Assembly (NCBI GenBank): GCA_963770895.1
Contig: CAVYRF010000002.1
Coordinates: forward strand, 4,768,001-4,832,000
DNA from: an uncultured Acidobacteriota bacterium
GTDB lineage: Bacteria; Acidobacteriota; Thermoanaerobaculia; Multivoradales; UBA5704
Length of the DNA: 64,000 nt
Reading direction: 5' to 3'
The notes under the pieces are model-generated. The model did not search any database, was not told the DNA's origin, and saw only the letters and a program-made list of their open reading frames with translations. The stretch's first letter is position 1, and each line of letters opens with the position of its first letter. The translations under genes were made by a program, and so were the position numbers. Below, piece after piece: positions 5,396-14,635 of the stretch.

Positions 5396-5857
5396 GGTTC
5401 CTCTCGATCCTCTCCGGTATCTCGGGTGTCTCCGGGCTCCGGGGTCTCCGGGTTCCGGGACGCGGGTCGGCGGACCGACCCCTGTTGCTTACAGTGCGTC
5501 TGCAGGCCCCAGACGCGAAATCCAATTTGGGCAGCCCCAGCGTTGAAGTTTGAGCAGCCCTCGCGTTGATGAGCGAAAGATACCAGAACACAACCGACTC
5601 GTCTATCCCCGTGGGACGTTTGGGGTCATTTTAATCCCATTTCGCAAAAATTAGGGATGCCCGGTATCGTATCTGGCGTCAGTGGCCAGCCTGCCGCCGG
5701 GGGCTGGTGTCGCAGGCCGGGCGCTGATGGCGGCGGGCTGGCGTGGGGCGCCGGGGAATGTGGCGGCGGGCTGGCGTGGCCCGCCGGGGTGCGGCCCCCG
5801 CCCCCCTGGCTGCCTGGCCCCCTGGGCGCGGTCTTTGCTCTATGGGAGGATCCACCC

Positions 5858-8542
5858 ATGCGAGCGATGCGCTCTTGTACCCTGGCCGCCCTGGCTGTCT
5901 GCTGCCTGGTGGGGACGCCACCGTCGCTTCACGCGGACAGCGAGAAGGCGATGGTGGCCCGCCTGCAGCCGCAATACCGTGACTGGTGGCTGGAAGTGTC
6001 GCTGCTGATCGGCCGCGACGAGCGCAAGGAGTTCCTGGGGCTGACCAAGGACTACGAGCGCGACCTGTTCATCCGTCGCTTCTGGGAGGCGCGCAACCCG
6101 GATCCGGGCATTGCGCCCAACGCCTTCAAGATCGAGTGGGAGCGCCGCATCGAGGCCGCCCGCGACTACTTCGGCAACATCACCGAGGACCGCGCGGTGA
6201 CTCTGCTGTTGCATTCGGCGCCGCCGGACCGCATCCAGACCGATTGCCTGCAGGCCACCTGGCCGCTCGAGATCTGGCACTACCGGTTTGGCGAGCGGAT
6301 TCCCGACGACCTGTACCTGCTGTTCTACCAGACCGCCGGATCCGGTCCGTTCCGCCTCTGGCGACAGGGGGACGGCCTGGCGACGCTGATCGCCAGGCTC
6401 AGCAACCAGCGGTCGCCACAGCTGCCGTCGCAGGGTGGAGTCGGGCAGGGGTCGCGGCCGCCCGACATCAATTTCAGCGGCTTGGGTGCGATGTCCAACG
6501 ACCTGTCGACGTTCTGGACCTTCCTGCAAGCCAACTGCCCCGACGAAGCGCCGATGCTGATGAACGCGGTCACCACGGTGGAGCGGGAAGACAGCTTTCA
6601 CATCCTCGACAAGCTCCTGGTGCCGCCGCCGCCGCACGACGCGGAGTGGCTGGCCACGTTCCGCGGCTACTCGACCAACGTGCCGCCCGGATCGCTGGCG
6701 CTGCCGGCGACCCTCAAGGTGACCTTCCCCGCGCGGCAAAAGAGCCGCGCCGTGGTTTCGGGCACGGTGGCGGTGCCGCCGGGGGCGGCCCAGGCCGTCG
6801 AGCTGGAAGGGCATCGCGCCTACAACTTCCTGCTCACCGGCGAGGTGGTGCAGGGGACCGAGCTGGTCGAATCGTTCCGCTACCGCTTCGACATGCCGGC
6901 GCCGAGCGGCGCGCAGGATACGCCGCTGCCGCTGGTTTTCGAGCGCACGCTGGCGCCCGGCGACTACGTGCTGCTGCTGCGCGTCGAAGACCTGCATTCG
7001 CATCACAACTTTCACGCCCAGGAGCCGATCACCGTGCCGCCGCTGGACGGCCTGCCCGACGTGGCCACCGCGGCGCGGCCGCCCGAGGTCACCGCGGTCC
7101 TGGATGCCGCGCGCGCCGAGCTGAAGGCCGGCGACGCCGGCGCGGCACCGCCGGCCGCACCGGGTGCCGCCGGCGCGCCGGCCACGGCGGCGGGTGGTGG
7201 CGCCGGCGCCGCGATCCGGCTGGTGCCTCCCGAGGGCGAGCGCATCACCGGCGCCGTGCGGCTGGAGGCGCAGGCCAGCGGCGACGCGGTGCGCAAGGTG
7301 ACGTTCTACCTCGACGGCAAGGCGATGCTCAGCCGCGTGCGGCCGCCCTATTCCGTCGAGCTGAACCTGGGCGACGTGCCGCTCACCCACGAGGTGCGCG
7401 CCGTCGCCTATGCGCGCGACGGCGCCGAGCTGTCGGCCGACACCGTGATGCTGAACGTACCGCGCCAGCGCTTTGCCGTGCACCTGGTCGAGCCGCGCGC
7501 CGGCGGCACCTACAAGGGCCAGGTGCTGGCGCGCGCCGAAGTGCATCTGCCCGATGGCGGCAAGCTCGACCGGCTGGAAGTGTTCGTGGACGACCAGCGC
7601 GTCGCGACCCTCTACCAGCCCCCCTTTGCCCAGCAGGTGACGCTCAAGGCGGACAACGCCAGCTACGTGCGCGCCGTCGGCTACCTGACCGACGGCACCT
7701 CGGCCGAGGATCTGGCGGTGATCAACTCGCGCAACGCGGTGGAATCCCTGGACGTGCGCCTGGTGGAGCTGTACGCCGCGGTGGTGGACCGCGCCGGGCA
7801 TCCGGTCGATCGGCTGCAGCAGAGCGACTTCAAGGTCACCGACGGCGGTGAGGCGCAGACCCTGCTGCGCTGCGAGCGGGTGCGGGACCTGCCGCTGCAC
7901 GTGCTGTTCGCGCTGGACACCTCGGCTTCGATGACGGCGATCCTGCCGCAGGTGCAAAGGGCGGCGCTCGCCTTTTTGCAGCGCACCTTGACGCCCAAGG
8001 ATCGTGCCGCGCTGCTCACCTTCAGCGACAGCCCGATCCTGCGCGTGCCCTTCACCGCCAACGTCGATACCCTGGCGGGCGCGCTCGCCGGCCTGAGCGC
8101 CGAGCGCGGCACGGCGCTGTTCGACAGCCTGGTGTACGGCCTTTCCTACATGAAGGGCGCCCAACACACCCAGTCGGCCCTCGTCCTGTTCACCGACGGC
8201 GACGACCACCTGAGCCATCTGCGCTTCGAGGAGACGTTGGAGTATGCGCGGCGCAGCGGCATCGCGCTCTACACCATCGGGGCCGGCGTCTCCCGCCTCG
8301 ACCTGCAGTCGCGCGCCCACCTGAGCCGCCTCGCCGAAGAGACCGGCGGCCGCAGCTACTTCATCGACTCGGCGGCCCAGCTCGACAGCGTCTACGACGC
8401 CATCGGCACCGAGCTGCGCTCGCGCTACCTGCTGGCCTACCAGCCCAACAAGCCGCCGCACATCGGCGAGTTCCGCAGCGTCGACGTCCAGGTCCTGGGC
8501 GACGGCCTGCGCGTCAAGACCCAGCGCGGCTACTATCCCTAA
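5858..8542 (+). CDS. Secreted GWxTD-like / Ig-like / VWA domain protein
   Basis: GGAGG before ATG 5858; signal peptide; FIRRFWEARNPDP...NAFKIEWERRIEAA (GWxTD-type region); two Ig-like segments; VWA MIDAS DTSASM...GTAL...TDGDD; C-terminal KTQRGYYP. Confidence 0.85.
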   Translation: MRAMRSCTLAALAVCCLVGTPPSLHADSEKAMVARLQPQYRDWWLEVSLLIGRDERKEFLGLTKDYERDLFIRRFWEARNPDPGIAPNAFKIEWERRIEAARDYFGNITEDRAVTLLLHSAPPDRIQTDCLQATWPLEIWHYRFGERIPDDLYLLFYQTAGSGPFRLWRQGDGLATLIARLSNQRSPQLPSQGGVGQGSRPPDINFSGLGAMSNDLSTFWTFLQANCPDEAPMLMNAVTTVEREDSFHILDKLLVPPPPHDAEWLATFRGYSTNVPPGSLALPATLKVTFPARQKSRAVVSGTVAVPPGAAQAVELEGHRAYNFLLTGEVVQGTELVESFRYRFDMPAPSGAQDTPLPLVFERTLAPGDYVLLLRVEDLHSHHNFHAQEPITVPPLDGLPDVATAARPPEVTAVLDAARAELKAGDAGAAPPAAPGAAGAPATAAGGGAGAAIRLVPPEGERITGAVRLEAQASGDAVRKVTFYLDGKAMLSRVRPPYSVELNLGDVPLTHEVRAVAYARDGAELSADTVMLNVPRQRFAVHLVEPRAGGTYKGQVLARAEVHLPDGGKLDRLEVFVDDQRVATLYQPPFAQQVTLKADNASYVRAVGYLTDGTSAEDLAVINSRNAVESLDVRLVELYAAVVDRAGHPVDRLQQSDFKVTDGGEAQTLLRCERVRDLPLHVLFALDTSASMTAILPQVQRAALAFLQRTLTPKDRAALLTFSDSPILRVPFTANVDTLAGALAGLSAERGTALFDSLVYGLSYMKGAQHTQSALVLFTDGDDHLSHLRFEETLEYARRSGIALYTIGAGVSRLDLQSRAHLSRLAEETGGRSYFIDSAAQLDSVYDAIGTELRSRYLLAYQPNKPPHIGEFRSVDVQVLGDGLRVKTQRGYYP

Positions 8543-8593
8543 CCCGCGGCGGTTGGCGCGCGGGGGTTGAGGCGTGGAACCTGGGACGGCCTT

Positions 8594-8628
8594 GAGGGGC
8601 AACCGGGCCTTGGACCGGGCTGCCCCTC
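8594..8628. terminator. GC-rich hairpin between the convergent VWA gene and RiPP precursor gene
   Basis: GAGGGGCA (8594-8601) pairs with TGCCCCTC (8621-8628); no clear U-tract. Confidence 0.35.
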
Positions 8629-8668
8629 CTCGATTCCTTCCGGCCGACGCTCGGCAGCGCGCTGTTGC

Positions 8669-8824
8669 CTAAGGGCAAATCGTCGAAGTGCACGTCGGGC
8701 AGGTCGTCTGAGCATAGCTGGTCAGGCAGACGCCTCCATTGAGCTTCTTGAGCAGGGCGGGATTCAAGTGGTGCAGGGTTTCCCGCGAGAGCTTCAGGGT
8801 TTTCCTCGGTCCGCTCTTTTTCAT
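8669..8824 (-). CDS. RiPP (lanthipeptide-like) precursor peptide, 51 aa, double-glycine leader
   Basis: Manual translation MKKSGPRKTLKLSRETLHHLNPALLKKLNGG-VCLTSYAQTTCPTCTSTICP*; AAGGAGG RBS at 8838-8832; absent from the ORF track because it is under 60 aa. Confidence 0.85.
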   Translation of the reverse strand: MKKSGPRKTLKLSRETLHHLNPALLKKLNGGVCLTSYAQTTCPTCTSTICP

Positions 8825-8849
8825 TTCAGTTCCTCCTTAATTCGAAAAC

Positions 8850-8877
8850 ACTATGGTATTCAAGGAAGCTGTGTCAA
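8850..8877 (-). promoter_or_regulatory. Sigma70-type promoter of the RiPP precursor
   Basis: TTGACA-16 nt-CATAGT on the minus strand just upstream of the RBS. Confidence 0.6.
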
Positions 8878-9055
8878 CAGAGGAGCCGCTACAGAAGGTC
8901 GGGCGGGACGGGCACGGGGCGGCAGCGGCAACACACGAATGCACCAGTACTGGGCTCCAGACGCATTTGCGTTTGCTGCCGTATACACTGCAGACTGCAA
9001 ATGACACCGGTCGCGCCCCGGCCAGAGGGCGCGGGACCGGTCGACAGGGGGAGCT

Positions 9056-9664
9056 ATGAGCCAGCGGCGGCAGATGCGACGTGGATCCATGGGTGTGCAG
9101 TCGTTTGCCGGCGCGGTGATGCTGGCGTTGCTCGCGGCGGGGGCGGCGCGGGCGCAGCCGCAGACCAACAGCAGCTGGACCGTGCGCGGCTATCTGTCGG
9201 GCGTCGCCGCGACGGAGAACGACCTGAGCGGCCAGCTGGGCTTCGGGCTGGATCTTGAGTACCGGCCGCTGCCGCTGCTGGGCGTCGACCTGAGCTTCGC
9301 CGAGCTGCGGACGATCCAGACCACCACCGACTTCCCGGTGCCGCCGACGCTCCCTTCCACGGTGCGCTTCAACATCCGCATGATGCCGGTCATGGTCGGT
9401 GTGTACGTGCACCCGAACCTGGGAGTGCCGTTCGACTGGTACCTGGGGCCGACGGTCGGCGCCACCTTCTTTGGCGGCGATGACAACGGCGAGTTTACCA
9501 ATCCCAGCCACGCCATGGCGTTGGGCGCGGTGCTCGGCTTCGACGTGCCCCTGGCCGCCGGCTGGGGAGTCGGTGCCAATGCCCGCTACGCCCATATCAC
9601 CGGCAGCTTCACCATCCCTGTCGATTGGTTTCAATTGAGCGGCGGCGTTTCGTACACCTGGTGA
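9056..9664 (+). CDS. OmpW-like outer-membrane beta-barrel protein
   Basis: Signal peptide, alternating beta-strand pattern (GFGLDLEYR, WYLGPTVG, WGVGANARY), C-terminal aromatic GGVSYTW. Confidence 0.75.
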   Translation: MSQRRQMRRGSMGVQSFAGAVMLALLAAGAARAQPQTNSSWTVRGYLSGVAATENDLSGQLGFGLDLEYRPLPLLGVDLSFAELRTIQTTTDFPVPPTLPSTVRFNIRMMPVMVGVYVHPNLGVPFDWYLGPTVGATFFGGDDNGEFTNPSHAMALGAVLGFDVPLAAGWGVGANARYAHITGSFTIPVDWFQLSGGVSYTW

Positions 9665-11986: not shown

Positions 11987-14635
11987 ATGTTGCACGAAGG
12001 CAGCGGTGCCGGCCGTCACACGGCGGCGGAGCGGCAGGGTGTCGCGGACGCTCCGGCCGCAGGGCGGCTGCGGAAGATCGCCGTCGTGGTGGTGCACGGT
12101 GTCGGGGACCAGAAGCCGGGAGAGCCGGTGCGGGCGGTGGGCAACCTGCTGCTGAGCTCCCAGAAGCAGGACTGCGGCTCAGTTGGCGAGCTGGCGCCAC
12201 GGACGGTGCGCATCCCGCTGCGCAAGGTCGCGGTTGCCGGGAGGGTCGAGACGCCCCGCAAGCGCGGCATGTTCACGTTTGACGAGCGGTCGCCCTACGC
12301 CCGCTCCAAGCTGCACCAGGCGAGGGCCACCCCTGGCCCTGGTCCTGGTCTCCGGTCGCCGGAAGGGGATGCGCCGCCGCCGCAGGGGCAGAGCGCTGGC
12401 CGGGGCGCCCGCAACGACGCCGGCACCCAGGACGGCGGGGATGCGGGGTACGAGTTCATGCGGGCGCAGCTTGCGGGCTATAAGCCTGCGGCCGCGGGCG
12501 ACAAGGAGGAGCTGGCCTACGAGGTCGCGTGCCTGGAAGGCTACGTACGTGACGGGCAGGGCAAGCCGGTGGCGCGGCTCGACATGTACGAGATGTTCTG
12601 GGCCGACCTGGGGAAGATCGGCACCGGCATTCTTTCGGTCTTTGGGCACCTCTACCAGCTGTTGTTCCACCTGCCCAGCCTGGGGCGCCAGACGGCGGAC
12701 TTCACCGCGATCGAGCAGCCGGGAAAGTGGGCGTGGCAGGCGTTCATGCGTTCTCGCAATGCCGCCGTGCGCGTCCTGACCCTGGCGGTGCCGATCCTCA
12801 ATCTGATCCTGGTCATCGCGTCGCTGGTCGCTCTGTCGGGAGCGCCGCGGTTGCAGCGCTATCAGCCCTGGGCCGCCGCGGGCCTCGCCGTCCTGTTGTC
12901 GATCGGGGCGGTCCTGGCATGGCTGTGGAAGAAGCCGCCGCCGACGACCGTGTCCTGGTATCTGCGGCCGATCGCTGCCGGCGCCGTCCTGGTCGGCCTG
13001 AGCCTGACGGCTGCCTGCGCCTATCCCAATCATGCCTTGGCCATCGAAGCGTGGCTGGCGGGATGTGTCGCGGCGCTGGTCGTTTTGGGCCGGTACGACA
13101 AGTTCAGGCCGGGGGCGCTTGGCTGCGGCCTGGTCGGGATCGCGGCTGCTTCGGCGTGGTTTGGCTGCGAAAGCTGGACCGCTCACGGATCGGCGGCCGG
13201 CAACGCGACGATCGGGCTCCATGTCATCCAGCTCGGGCTGTGCGCGCTCAGGATTTCATGGGTGCTGGTGGCGCTCTGCTTTGCGGGGGCGCTGGCGGCG
13301 AGCGCGTGGGCACTGGTGAGCACACGCCCTGCTGACCGTCGCCGCTCAGCCCGCGGCGTGTGGACCGCCCACACCACGCTGGGTCTCTCGTCGGCGCTGG
13401 TGCTGATCCTCAACCTGTCGCTGTGGAGCGCGGTGATTCAGTTTGCCGCCAAGCCCCTGTTGCAGCCGGACCCGCAGGGCAACCCGGTGACCGTACAGCA
13501 GCTGTGCAACGGCCACCCTTGCGCCGACCTGACCTTGCAGCAGCCGTGCGCCAGGATCCAGCCGCTGCCGGTGGGGAAGTTTTGGCAGGAGCCCGATACG
13601 GCCTGCGCGGTCGATCTGGCCAATGAACTGATCACTGTCCACGCGGGTTGGGGTTTTGTGCTCTCCCTCTGCGGGCTGGCCGTGGTGCTGCTGGTGGCGG
13701 TGTGGGGGCTGGCGCCATCGATCGTGGCCGAGATCGATCCGCCGCAGCGCTCCAAAACGGAACGGGCGCGGCGCTTCGGCCGGTGGCTCACGTGCGGAAT
13801 GAGTGTCATCGGCAGGTGCGTCTTCCTGCTCGGGCCGCTGCTCGTCGGCGGCGTCCTGTGGTCTGCCGTCCTGGCCGGTCACGGCCATTCGCCGATCCTG
13901 TTCTGGATCTCGGACCTGGCGGTGTTCGCACTGGTCGGCGGCAGGCAGTGGTTGAGCTCGGTGGGCGTGATCCTGGGGATCATGCTGGAGATCGACAACT
14001 ACATCCGCGAGCACCCGACCGAATCGGCGCCGCGCGCCCGGATCGCCGAGCGCTTCGCATCCCTGCTGCGCCATATCGGGCAGGACCGGCGGCACGGCCT
14101 TGCAGGGTACGACGCGGTGATCTTCGTCGCGCACAGTCAGGGGACCGTGGTCACGGCGGACCTGCTGCGGTTCCTGGCGATGGAGCGCCGGCTGCCGGAG
14201 GCGCAGCACGAGCCTGCGCTGCGCTGGCTGGAATGGACTCCGATCTGTCTGTTCACCATGGGATGCCCGCTGCGTCAGCTCTACGGGTGGTGCTTTCCCA
14301 ACCTGTACGACTGGGCAATGCCACCGGCGACGGCCGCGGCCGGCAGCTGGCTTCCCGGCAACGTGCGCTGGCTGAACGCCTACCGCAGCGGCGACTACGT
14401 CGGCCGGTATCTATGGGCGCCGCCCGAGCATCCCGACGTGTGGACACGCTGGCCCGCCGGCGCCGCAGGACTGATGCACTTTGTGAACGGCGCGGGCACG
14501 CAGGCCGAGGGGTGCATCGGCGAGGGCGCCCACACCCACTACTGGGACGCGACGGCCGGCGACGTGGCCGCGCTGCTCCAGGGGCTGGTCGTTTCCAGCC
14601 TGGGTGAGCCGTTCTCTCCCTTCCCGCCGGGCTAG
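11987..14635 (+). CDS. Multi-pass membrane protein with a split alpha/beta-hydrolase (lipase-like) domain
   Basis: N-terminal VVVHGVGDQ; roughly 10-12 hydrophobic segments; C-terminal FVAHSQGT, LFTMGCPL, NAYRSGDYVG, AHTHYW; GGGAG RBS. Confidence 0.75.
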   Translation: MLHEGSGAGRHTAAERQGVADAPAAGRLRKIAVVVVHGVGDQKPGEPVRAVGNLLLSSQKQDCGSVGELAPRTVRIPLRKVAVAGRVETPRKRGMFTFDERSPYARSKLHQARATPGPGPGLRSPEGDAPPPQGQSAGRGARNDAGTQDGGDAGYEFMRAQLAGYKPAAAGDKEELAYEVACLEGYVRDGQGKPVARLDMYEMFWADLGKIGTGILSVFGHLYQLLFHLPSLGRQTADFTAIEQPGKWAWQAFMRSRNAAVRVLTLAVPILNLILVIASLVALSGAPRLQRYQPWAAAGLAVLLSIGAVLAWLWKKPPPTTVSWYLRPIAAGAVLVGLSLTAACAYPNHALAIEAWLAGCVAALVVLGRYDKFRPGALGCGLVGIAAASAWFGCESWTAHGSAAGNATIGLHVIQLGLCALRISWVLVALCFAGALAASAWALVSTRPADRRRSARGVWTAHTTLGLSSALVLILNLSLWSAVIQFAAKPLLQPDPQGNPVTVQQLCNGHPCADLTLQQPCARIQPLPVGKFWQEPDTACAVDLANELITVHAGWGFVLSLCGLAVVLLVAVWGLAPSIVAEIDPPQRSKTERARRFGRWLTCGMSVIGRCVFLLGPLLVGGVLWSAVLAGHGHSPILFWISDLAVFALVGGRQWLSSVGVILGIMLEIDNYIREHPTESAPRARIAERFASLLRHIGQDRRHGLAGYDAVIFVAHSQGTVVTADLLRFLAMERRLPEAQHEPALRWLEWTPICLFTMGCPLRQLYGWCFPNLYDWAMPPATAAAGSWLPGNVRWLNAYRSGDYVGRYLWAPPEHPDVWTRWPAGAAGLMHFVNGAGTQAEGCIGEGAHTHYWDATAGDVAALLQGLVVSSLGEPFSPFPPG

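Follow-up and report, generated by a model that had tools for sequence, protein, structure and literature searches.

The precursor gene and its surroundings

The window analysed here is a 64-kb stretch (C2:4768001-4832000) of an 8.16-Mb assembly in three contigs, a soil metagenome-assembled genome of the Thermoanaerobaculia (Acidobacteriota). Its minus strand carries at 8669..8824 (stop codon included) an ORF of 51 codons with an ATG start, which we annotate from the ORF call and its translation as a LanA-type precursor gene. The leader (residues 1-31; 8732..8824) was delimited by a match to the model NF038153 and by alignment A1, and the 20-residue core (residues 32-51; 8672..8731) contains four Cys as against eight Ser/Thr (six Thr and two Ser). 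A Shine-Dalgarno sequence, AAGGAGG (8832..8838, minus strand), ends 7 nt 5' of the ATG, and a sigma-70-like promoter, TTGACA-16-CATAGT (8850..8877, minus strand; 10 of 12 positions matching), is the sole promoter-like site between 8400 and 9200, with 0.1 expected from shuffled sequences. The original prediction had described this ORF with an identical peptide, together with the ribosome-binding site, the promoter and the make-up of the core, and all of these were found as described. The downstream hairpin that it also described held up in part: a GC-rich stem of 15 pairs does lie on the minus strand at about 8594..8628, 41 nt past the precursor stop, and is retained in the centroid fold, but no T-run follows it, terminator-like sites numbered zero and the 106-nt stretch bearing it does not fold above the level of shuffles (z -0.92). 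This hairpin could be shared by both convergent genes.

The gene occupies a 513-bp gap between a convergent gene for a VWA-domain protein (961 aa; 5657-8542) and a divergent gene for an outer-membrane beta-barrel protein (202 aa; 9056-9664). Neither of these neighbours codes for an enzyme that modifies peptides. As had been claimed, RiPP enzyme genes were not found in the 64 kb, into which none of the genome's matches to LANC_like, Lant_dehydr_N/C, DUF4135, Peptidase_C39, SPASM and YcaO falls (radical SAM enzymes being covered through SPASM). Elsewhere in the window, a plus-strand ORF of 882 aa (11987-14635) displays many predicted hydrophobic stretches and matches none of the Pfam families at E ≤ 0.001.

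As short open frames are common in a genome of 70.7% GC, independent signs of coding were sought for the ORF, which proved to be a real gene. Its GC content at codon positions 1, 2 and 3 (0.42, 0.52 and 0.77 respectively) follows the coding pattern typical of the host, and a leader HMM built from its paralogues scores it at E 1.1e-8. A search of 5.8 billion proteins returned three metagenome homologues (P0004-P0006) of 51-52 aa, sharing 94, 82 and 71% identity with the target, all of which retain the frame, the entire LKLSRETL...LLKKLNGG leader, the Gly-Gly and Cys33, Cys42 and Cys45. These three Cys are invariant across the four aligned homologues, while the C-terminal third of the core is the variable part among the metagenome proteins. 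The DNA itself is present in soil metagenome runs: four DNA runs of one study, probably the source samples, are identical wherever the ORF is covered, and the six differences seen in the low-depth run X3 all fall outside it (8634; 8901-8950), a coverage too thin to build on. No RNA run was found to contain positions 8300-9300 of the window.

Leader and core of the predicted peptide

NF038153 (lant_leader_L1a; NCBIfam), a model of class I lanthipeptide leaders, aligns end to end with residues 1-31, scoring 18 bits (E 0.0023) and so missing its curated cut-off of 22. Pfam gave no meaningful match to the peptide, and neither a Nif11 nor an NHLP-type leader was found in it among NCBIfam and Pfam models at E ≤ 10. 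The leader starts with MKK, contains the box L10-x-L12-x-R14-x5-L20 and ends in G30-G31, with Leu at -4, -7, -12 and -15 counted from the Gly-Gly. Such a spacing of Leu or other hydrophobic residues is typical of double-glycine leaders. PMC7268733 describes class I LanAs of Bacteroidetes with LxLxKx5L leaders, a GG end and a C39 protease often in the cluster, and calls GG leaders classic for class II lanthipeptides; the C39 domain LahT150 cleaves PedA15.2, a class I peptide with a GG leader, according to PMC12328550. The proposal that an LxLxxETL...GG leader is of lanthipeptide type is thus borne out by the NF038153 match and the class I LanA motif; neither this sort of leader nor its association with class I is new.

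A dispersed family of paralogues

NF038153 matches 43 places in the host genome, three of which exceed the cut-off (27.5-28.5 bits); in translation these matches share the leader pattern MKK..LxLxRETLxxL..(A/G)G, after which come tails rich in Cys, Thr and Ser. A leader HMM of 29 positions, built on 81 leaders picked by regular expression and run over every stop-to-stop frame, picked out 98 short ORFs with E < 0.05, most of which (91) also fall below 1e-3, with a clean gap to the noise; a second profile (A1, 20 members) detected 93 ORFs at E ≤ 0.001. A genome-wide search for such paralogous leaders had been proposed with the original prediction, and such leaders do exist across the genome. The third codon position has the highest GC in all 98 ORFs, and an SD-like motif is found between -20 and -3 in 79 of the 88 paralogues with an ATG start (as against 745 of 5000 random ATGs). 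No common upstream motif was found besides the SD, a TTGACN-type pattern occurring in just three of the 88 upstream regions.

Cores are 12-48 residues in length (median 25) and consist of 16.4% Cys, 15.2% Thr and 8.4% Ser, with Lys and Arg together making up 3.4%, a composition that is not fully independent of the search since the HMM seeds, although the HMM itself is leader-only, were picked partly by Cys content. Ser plus Thr equals or exceeds Cys in 97 of the 98 members, and the Cys count is odd in 42 cores, even in 54 and zero in two. The cores are hypervariable (median pairwise similarity 0.05; one near-duplicate pair), while the leaders end in GG (54), AG (25), AA (8) or GA (8).

The family is scattered over all three contigs at 11-14 members per Mb on each, i.e. 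one precursor per 83 kb, and is arranged as 80 singletons, six pairs and two triplets. A LanB, LanC, LanM or C39 match is found within 5 kb of only seven members, and the median distance to the nearest such match is 131 kb. Three further precursors sit 2.8-7.9 kb beyond the window end (L068, C2:4834755-4839915) beside a duplicated MacB/FtsX permease of 871 aa. Duplicated permeases of this type were detected at 12 precursor loci, five of them within 200 bp, where about three would be expected from a rough estimate of intergenic placement; with 124 MacB_PCD matches in the genome, we find this link unconvincing. NRPS-type proteins with AMP-binding, condensation and thioesterase domains, one of them also with a sulfotransferase domain, were found within 4 kb of 10 precursors (five within 560 bp; e.g. 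C1:1826504-1830617 and C1:2007277-2011429), likely a coincidence in a genome this rich in NRPS. No uncharacterised enzyme family recurs in the 4 kb around the 98 precursors.

Modifying enzymes and exporters in the host genome

Family searches across the host genome, followed by a Pfam scan of the loci found, yielded the lanthipeptide enzymes and C39-ABC genes that the window does not contain. The genome encodes a single full-length LanB (1177 aa; C2:5180050-5183583), in which both domains are complete (Lant_dehydr_N 2-645/649; Lant_dehydr_C 1-253/255), and a LanC of 536 aa convergent with it (joint locus C2:5178405-5183583). This LanB lies 403 kb from the target gene, no lanthipeptide enzyme was found within 260 kb of the target, and no family precursor lies beside the host's own LanB, the nearest being 16 kb off. 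Immediately upstream of LanB, an ORF of 366 aa (L059:12790-13890, equivalent to C2:5183790-5184890, minus strand) has no Pfam match and a repetitive, Gly/Asn-rich C-terminal half. A protein of 925 aa gave a weak match to Lant_dehydr_N only.

The CCG zinc-ligand motif marks ProcM. Both of the two LanMs encoded in the host genome show CHG instead (read by eye), on which ground a ProcM-like LanM was rejected as the shared synthetase. The inventory further contains a RamC_N-kinase-LanC protein (1034 aa), a kinase-LanC protein (963 aa) and about seven stand-alone LanC-like genes, as well as five SPASM matches and one YcaO match, none of them near the target. At five loci (L052-L056; C1:1579906-1581435, C2:2707677-2709301, C2:3320488-3323265, C1:1567036-1568463 and C1:1011293-1012990) less than 350 bp separate a precursor from a co-oriented stand-alone LanC-like gene, with no LanB nearby, which indicates that other routes exist in this genome. 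Two of the LanC-paired precursors, whose leaders are of an 'ETLLPL' subtype, lack Cys in the core altogether, and one pair comprises two LanC genes in tandem, with an integrase and the reverse transcriptase of a group II intron as neighbours.

On a contig other than that of the target, a canonical C39-ABC exporter of 737 aa (C1:1782768-1784981) is encoded together with one more ABC protein and an outer-membrane factor. Its N-terminus carries Q..ECG and H-F-V-V motifs, of which the ECG and HF we take to hold the catalytic Cys and His, and from its sequence the exporter looks active. Two more strong C39 matches bring the C39-ABC genes to three in all.

The precursor family tracks LanB across genomes

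Co-occurrence was examined in 41 genomes, i.e. the host and 40 relatives from its genus, family and order, counting a LanB as strong when its best match reached E ≤ 1e-100 and profiling enzymes of classes I and II. The precursor family was detected in 25 of the 41 genomes, including nine of nine congeners, at 1 to 93 copies each. A strong LanB was present in 23, of which 22 carry the family. The remaining three family-positive genomes (G005, G020 and G024, with 65, 55 and 26 precursors respectively) have a split or fragmentary LanB, which may be an assembly artefact, while a single one of the 16 family-negative genomes (G029) has a strong LanB. In G024 (C3:1392860-1394854) the LanB orthologue lies in five adjoining pieces in different frames, either through gene decay or through assembly errors. 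LanM was detected in 18 of the 25 family-positive and three of the 16 family-negative genomes, and was not found in seven family-positive relatives, including G018 (100% complete; 34 precursors), G022 (36 precursors) and G008 (29 precursors). The family thus tracks LanB and tracks LanM less well, a co-occurrence that overstates the case, since related genomes are not independent, and that is to be read as a pattern and not as a test.

Adjacency points to the same enzyme. The host LanB, searched against GTDB species genomes, gave 77 loci, the nearest of them in soil metagenome-assembled genomes of Thermoanaerobaculia and other Acidobacteriota; the full set comprises Thermoanaerobaculia, Holophagales, Acidobacteriaceae, Bryobacteraceae, Myxococcota (Archangium, Cystobacter, Myxococcus, Kofleriaceae and Haliangiales), a few Actinomycetota and others. 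When flanks of up to 8 kb were scanned for family leaders, an ORF with such a leader was found at 27 of the 77 loci, often immediately beside LanB. The corresponding figure was two of 20 for the LanM loci of relatives (19.5-kb stretches), which is about the level set by precursor density, and none of 11 for control loci.

A complex prediction for the peptide and residues 1-800 of LanB, each supplied as an alignment, gave a score of 0.53 where the best of three controls reached 0.02, with a contact agreement of at least 47% and a partner pLDDT of at least 42 across runs. Of 157 solved complexes 116 attain the mark applied, as do two of 215 mismatches; the band up to 0.60, a weak one in which our score falls, holds 18 of the 157 solved complexes and both of the passing mismatches. 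The structure of a LanB-leader complex has already been solved, so this pass may reflect likeness or fold memory only, and the prediction lends weak support to a docking of the peptide on LanB.

Distribution and local history of the family

Big expansions are concentrated in the host's own family, where 20 of 24 other genomes are positive with up to 65 copies, while in a thin phylum-wide sample at least six of 150 other Acidobacteriota genomes contain a family match; at most 44 candidates were scored per genome there, so that these counts cannot be set against the others. One of the six genomes, G182, is unpublished and bears no part of the argument. Of 1.84 billion cluster representatives worldwide, 10,347 match the leader profile at E ≤ 0.001, and among the 150 matches listed nearly all are 45-90 aa in length. 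Four longer proteins (P0007, P0008, P0026 and P0094; 130-170 aa) each match the leader profile twice, either because gene callers have joined two neighbouring precursors or because the proteins are genuine tandem fusions.

The copy studied here has no counterpart at its own locus: no family ORF was found within 1.5 kb of the orthologous VWA gene in nine congeneric species, in which the VWA locus also lacks both a sequence resembling the 513-bp intergenic region and an outer-membrane protein gene downstream. The lack of a family ORF beside the VWA orthologues suggests that the target copy is young or mobile.

A probable class I precursor matured in trans, and the alternatives

We consider it rather likely, from the leader and the genomic pattern described above, that the gene encodes a class I lanthipeptide-type precursor that is matured in trans and belongs to a prochlorosin-like dispersed library. 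The 31-residue leader (LxLxRx5L ... Gly-Gly) would serve as a docking handle on the LanB at C2:5180050-5183583, which would glutamylate Ser/Thr of the core and then eliminate the glutamate. Glutamylation of Ser/Thr followed by elimination is established class I chemistry. A LanC, either the one beside LanB or a stand-alone one, would next join the four Cys to dehydro residues, so that up to four thioether rings could form, and the C39-ABC exporter (C1:1782768-1784981) would cut after Gly31 and export a 20-residue polycyclic peptide, which may have some activity. The five precursor-LanC pairs that have no LanB nearby invite the speculation that one dehydratase feeds several cyclases. An extension of this scheme to a glutamyl-tRNA-dependent class I library, in which one LanB serves about 100 fast-evolving precursors and the stand-alone LanCs share in ring formation, is put forward tentatively, as somewhat less likely than not.

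The peptide might be a lanthipeptide precursor that is processed by another synthetase of the host, be it a LanM, the RamC-like class III protein, the kinase-LanC protein or a stand-alone LanC with an unrecognised dehydratase. The recognised enzymes among these are all encoded in the genome, the GG leader is of the sort called classic for class II in PMC7268733, five precursors adjoin stand-alone LanCs in the same orientation and one family member lies 3.5 kb from a LanM. At one precursor per 83 kb, however, a single one within 5 kb of two LanMs is not surprising, just as the two family ORFs at 20 LanM loci of relatives are about what precursor density alone would give; LanM was moreover not found in seven family-positive relatives and is present in three family-negative ones, and neither host LanM has the CCG of ProcM. 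We regard this reading as unlikely, and the shared enzyme as most likely a LanB/LanC pair of class I rather than a LanM resembling ProcM. A similarly low probability attaches to an unmodified or disulfide-only double-glycine peptide, i.e. a bacteriocin or signal that a C39 ABC protein would cut and export and that would contain no lanthionine. The Leu residues at -4, -7, -12 and -15 before the GG, the three strongly matching C39-ABC genes, the even number of Cys (four) in the target and the remoteness of the modifying enzymes would all suit such a peptide, whereas the odd Cys counts of 42 of the 98 cores fit a pairing with Ser/Thr better than one of Cys with Cys, Ser plus Thr is at least as frequent as Cys in 97 of 98, and Lys and Arg are scarce (3.4% of the cores). 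The match to a lanthipeptide-specific leader model and the tie of the family to LanB, both across genomes and by adjacency to LanB orthologues elsewhere, likewise argue against it.

Leaders resembling KLxLxKETL...GG also occur in radical-SAM-linked peptides of Bacteroidota, and a gene for a SPASM-domain protein is located about 5 kb from one of the family members, so that the same leader type might precede a different RiPP chemistry, e.g. radical-SAM thioethers. With just five SPASM matches and one YcaO match genome-wide, none near the target, and with MacB/FtsX and NRPS-type proteins, but no new enzyme family, recurring within 4 kb of the precursors, we hold this to be quite improbable. That the gene is a decaying or silent relic with no present function is very improbable indeed: the missing orthologue at the matching site in nine congeneric species would agree with it, yet the frame, the SD and the promoter-like site are intact, GC by codon position is coding-like, and homologues down to 71% identity keep the frame, the leader and the Cys. 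Class I maturation by LanB/LanC remains the reading that we prefer.

Comparison with known systems

The closest known relatives are the L1a class I precursors of Bacteroidetes (NF038153; e.g. pinensin and the PedA of Pedobacter), which display the same leader architecture, GG end and Cys/Ser/Thr-rich core and whose LanB, LanC and C39 exporter are likewise encoded in the host genome. These have Lys in the box, whereas the target has Arg and scores under the curated cut-off; their hosts are Bacteroidetes and not Thermoanaerobaculia; and they occur as a few genes inside a cluster, while the target stands alone, 403 kb from LanB, in a genome with about 98 copies.

In genomic arrangement the family instead resembles the prochlorosins and synechococsins, which are also scattered, with conserved GG-ending leaders and hypervariable Cys-rich cores, many of them standing alone. 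PMC10783134 puts the substrates of ProcM at 29 and the putative ones of SyncM at 79, both class II, and the count of about 98 in the present family is higher than the 79 quoted there for SyncM. Those systems differ in having Nif11-type leaders, of which the target has none, and a LanM, with CCG in ProcM, whereas here LanB/LanC is likely and the LanMs show CHG; they also belong to marine cyanobacteria and not to a soil acidobacterium. Double-glycine class II bacteriocins have in common with the target the GG site, the hydrophobic residues at -4, -7, -12 and -15 and a C39-ABC exporter in the genome, but the cores of the present family contain 16% Cys, 24% Ser plus Thr and few charged residues, and its leaders match a lanthipeptide model and are linked to LanB.

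All predictions open to a computational check were borne out, subject to two corrections. The idea of a prochlorosin-like library with a shared synthetase stands as regards the roughly 98 dispersed paralogues, but the enzyme is most likely LanB/LanC and not a ProcM-like LanM. Similarly, the supposed orphan precursor of a new peptide is indeed a new member, but one with a leader of a kind already known; what is unusual is the scale and the dispersal.

Significance of a possible scattered class I library

What is new is the scale and architecture, with about 98 precursors dispersed over a genome that has one LanB/LanC pair, and we found no description of such an expansion in Acidobacteriota in the open full-text literature. 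Cluster-based genome mining overlooks nearly all such genes, 91 of the 98 being located more than 5 kb from lanthipeptide enzyme matches. Substrate-tolerant lanthipeptide enzymes are prized for the making of cyclic-peptide libraries, and the sole natural many-substrate example cited in the available portions of PMC10783134 and PMC12328550 is class II, namely ProcM/SyncM. If one LanB/LanC handles about 100 unrelated cores, it would be a class I enzyme of proven breadth, and there would be about 100 new ring scaffolds per genome within a family of 10,347 cluster representatives. The one-enzyme, many-substrates strategy would then have arisen independently on a different enzyme class, and the soil acidobacterium would add an independent second instance in which to ask why such libraries are maintained.
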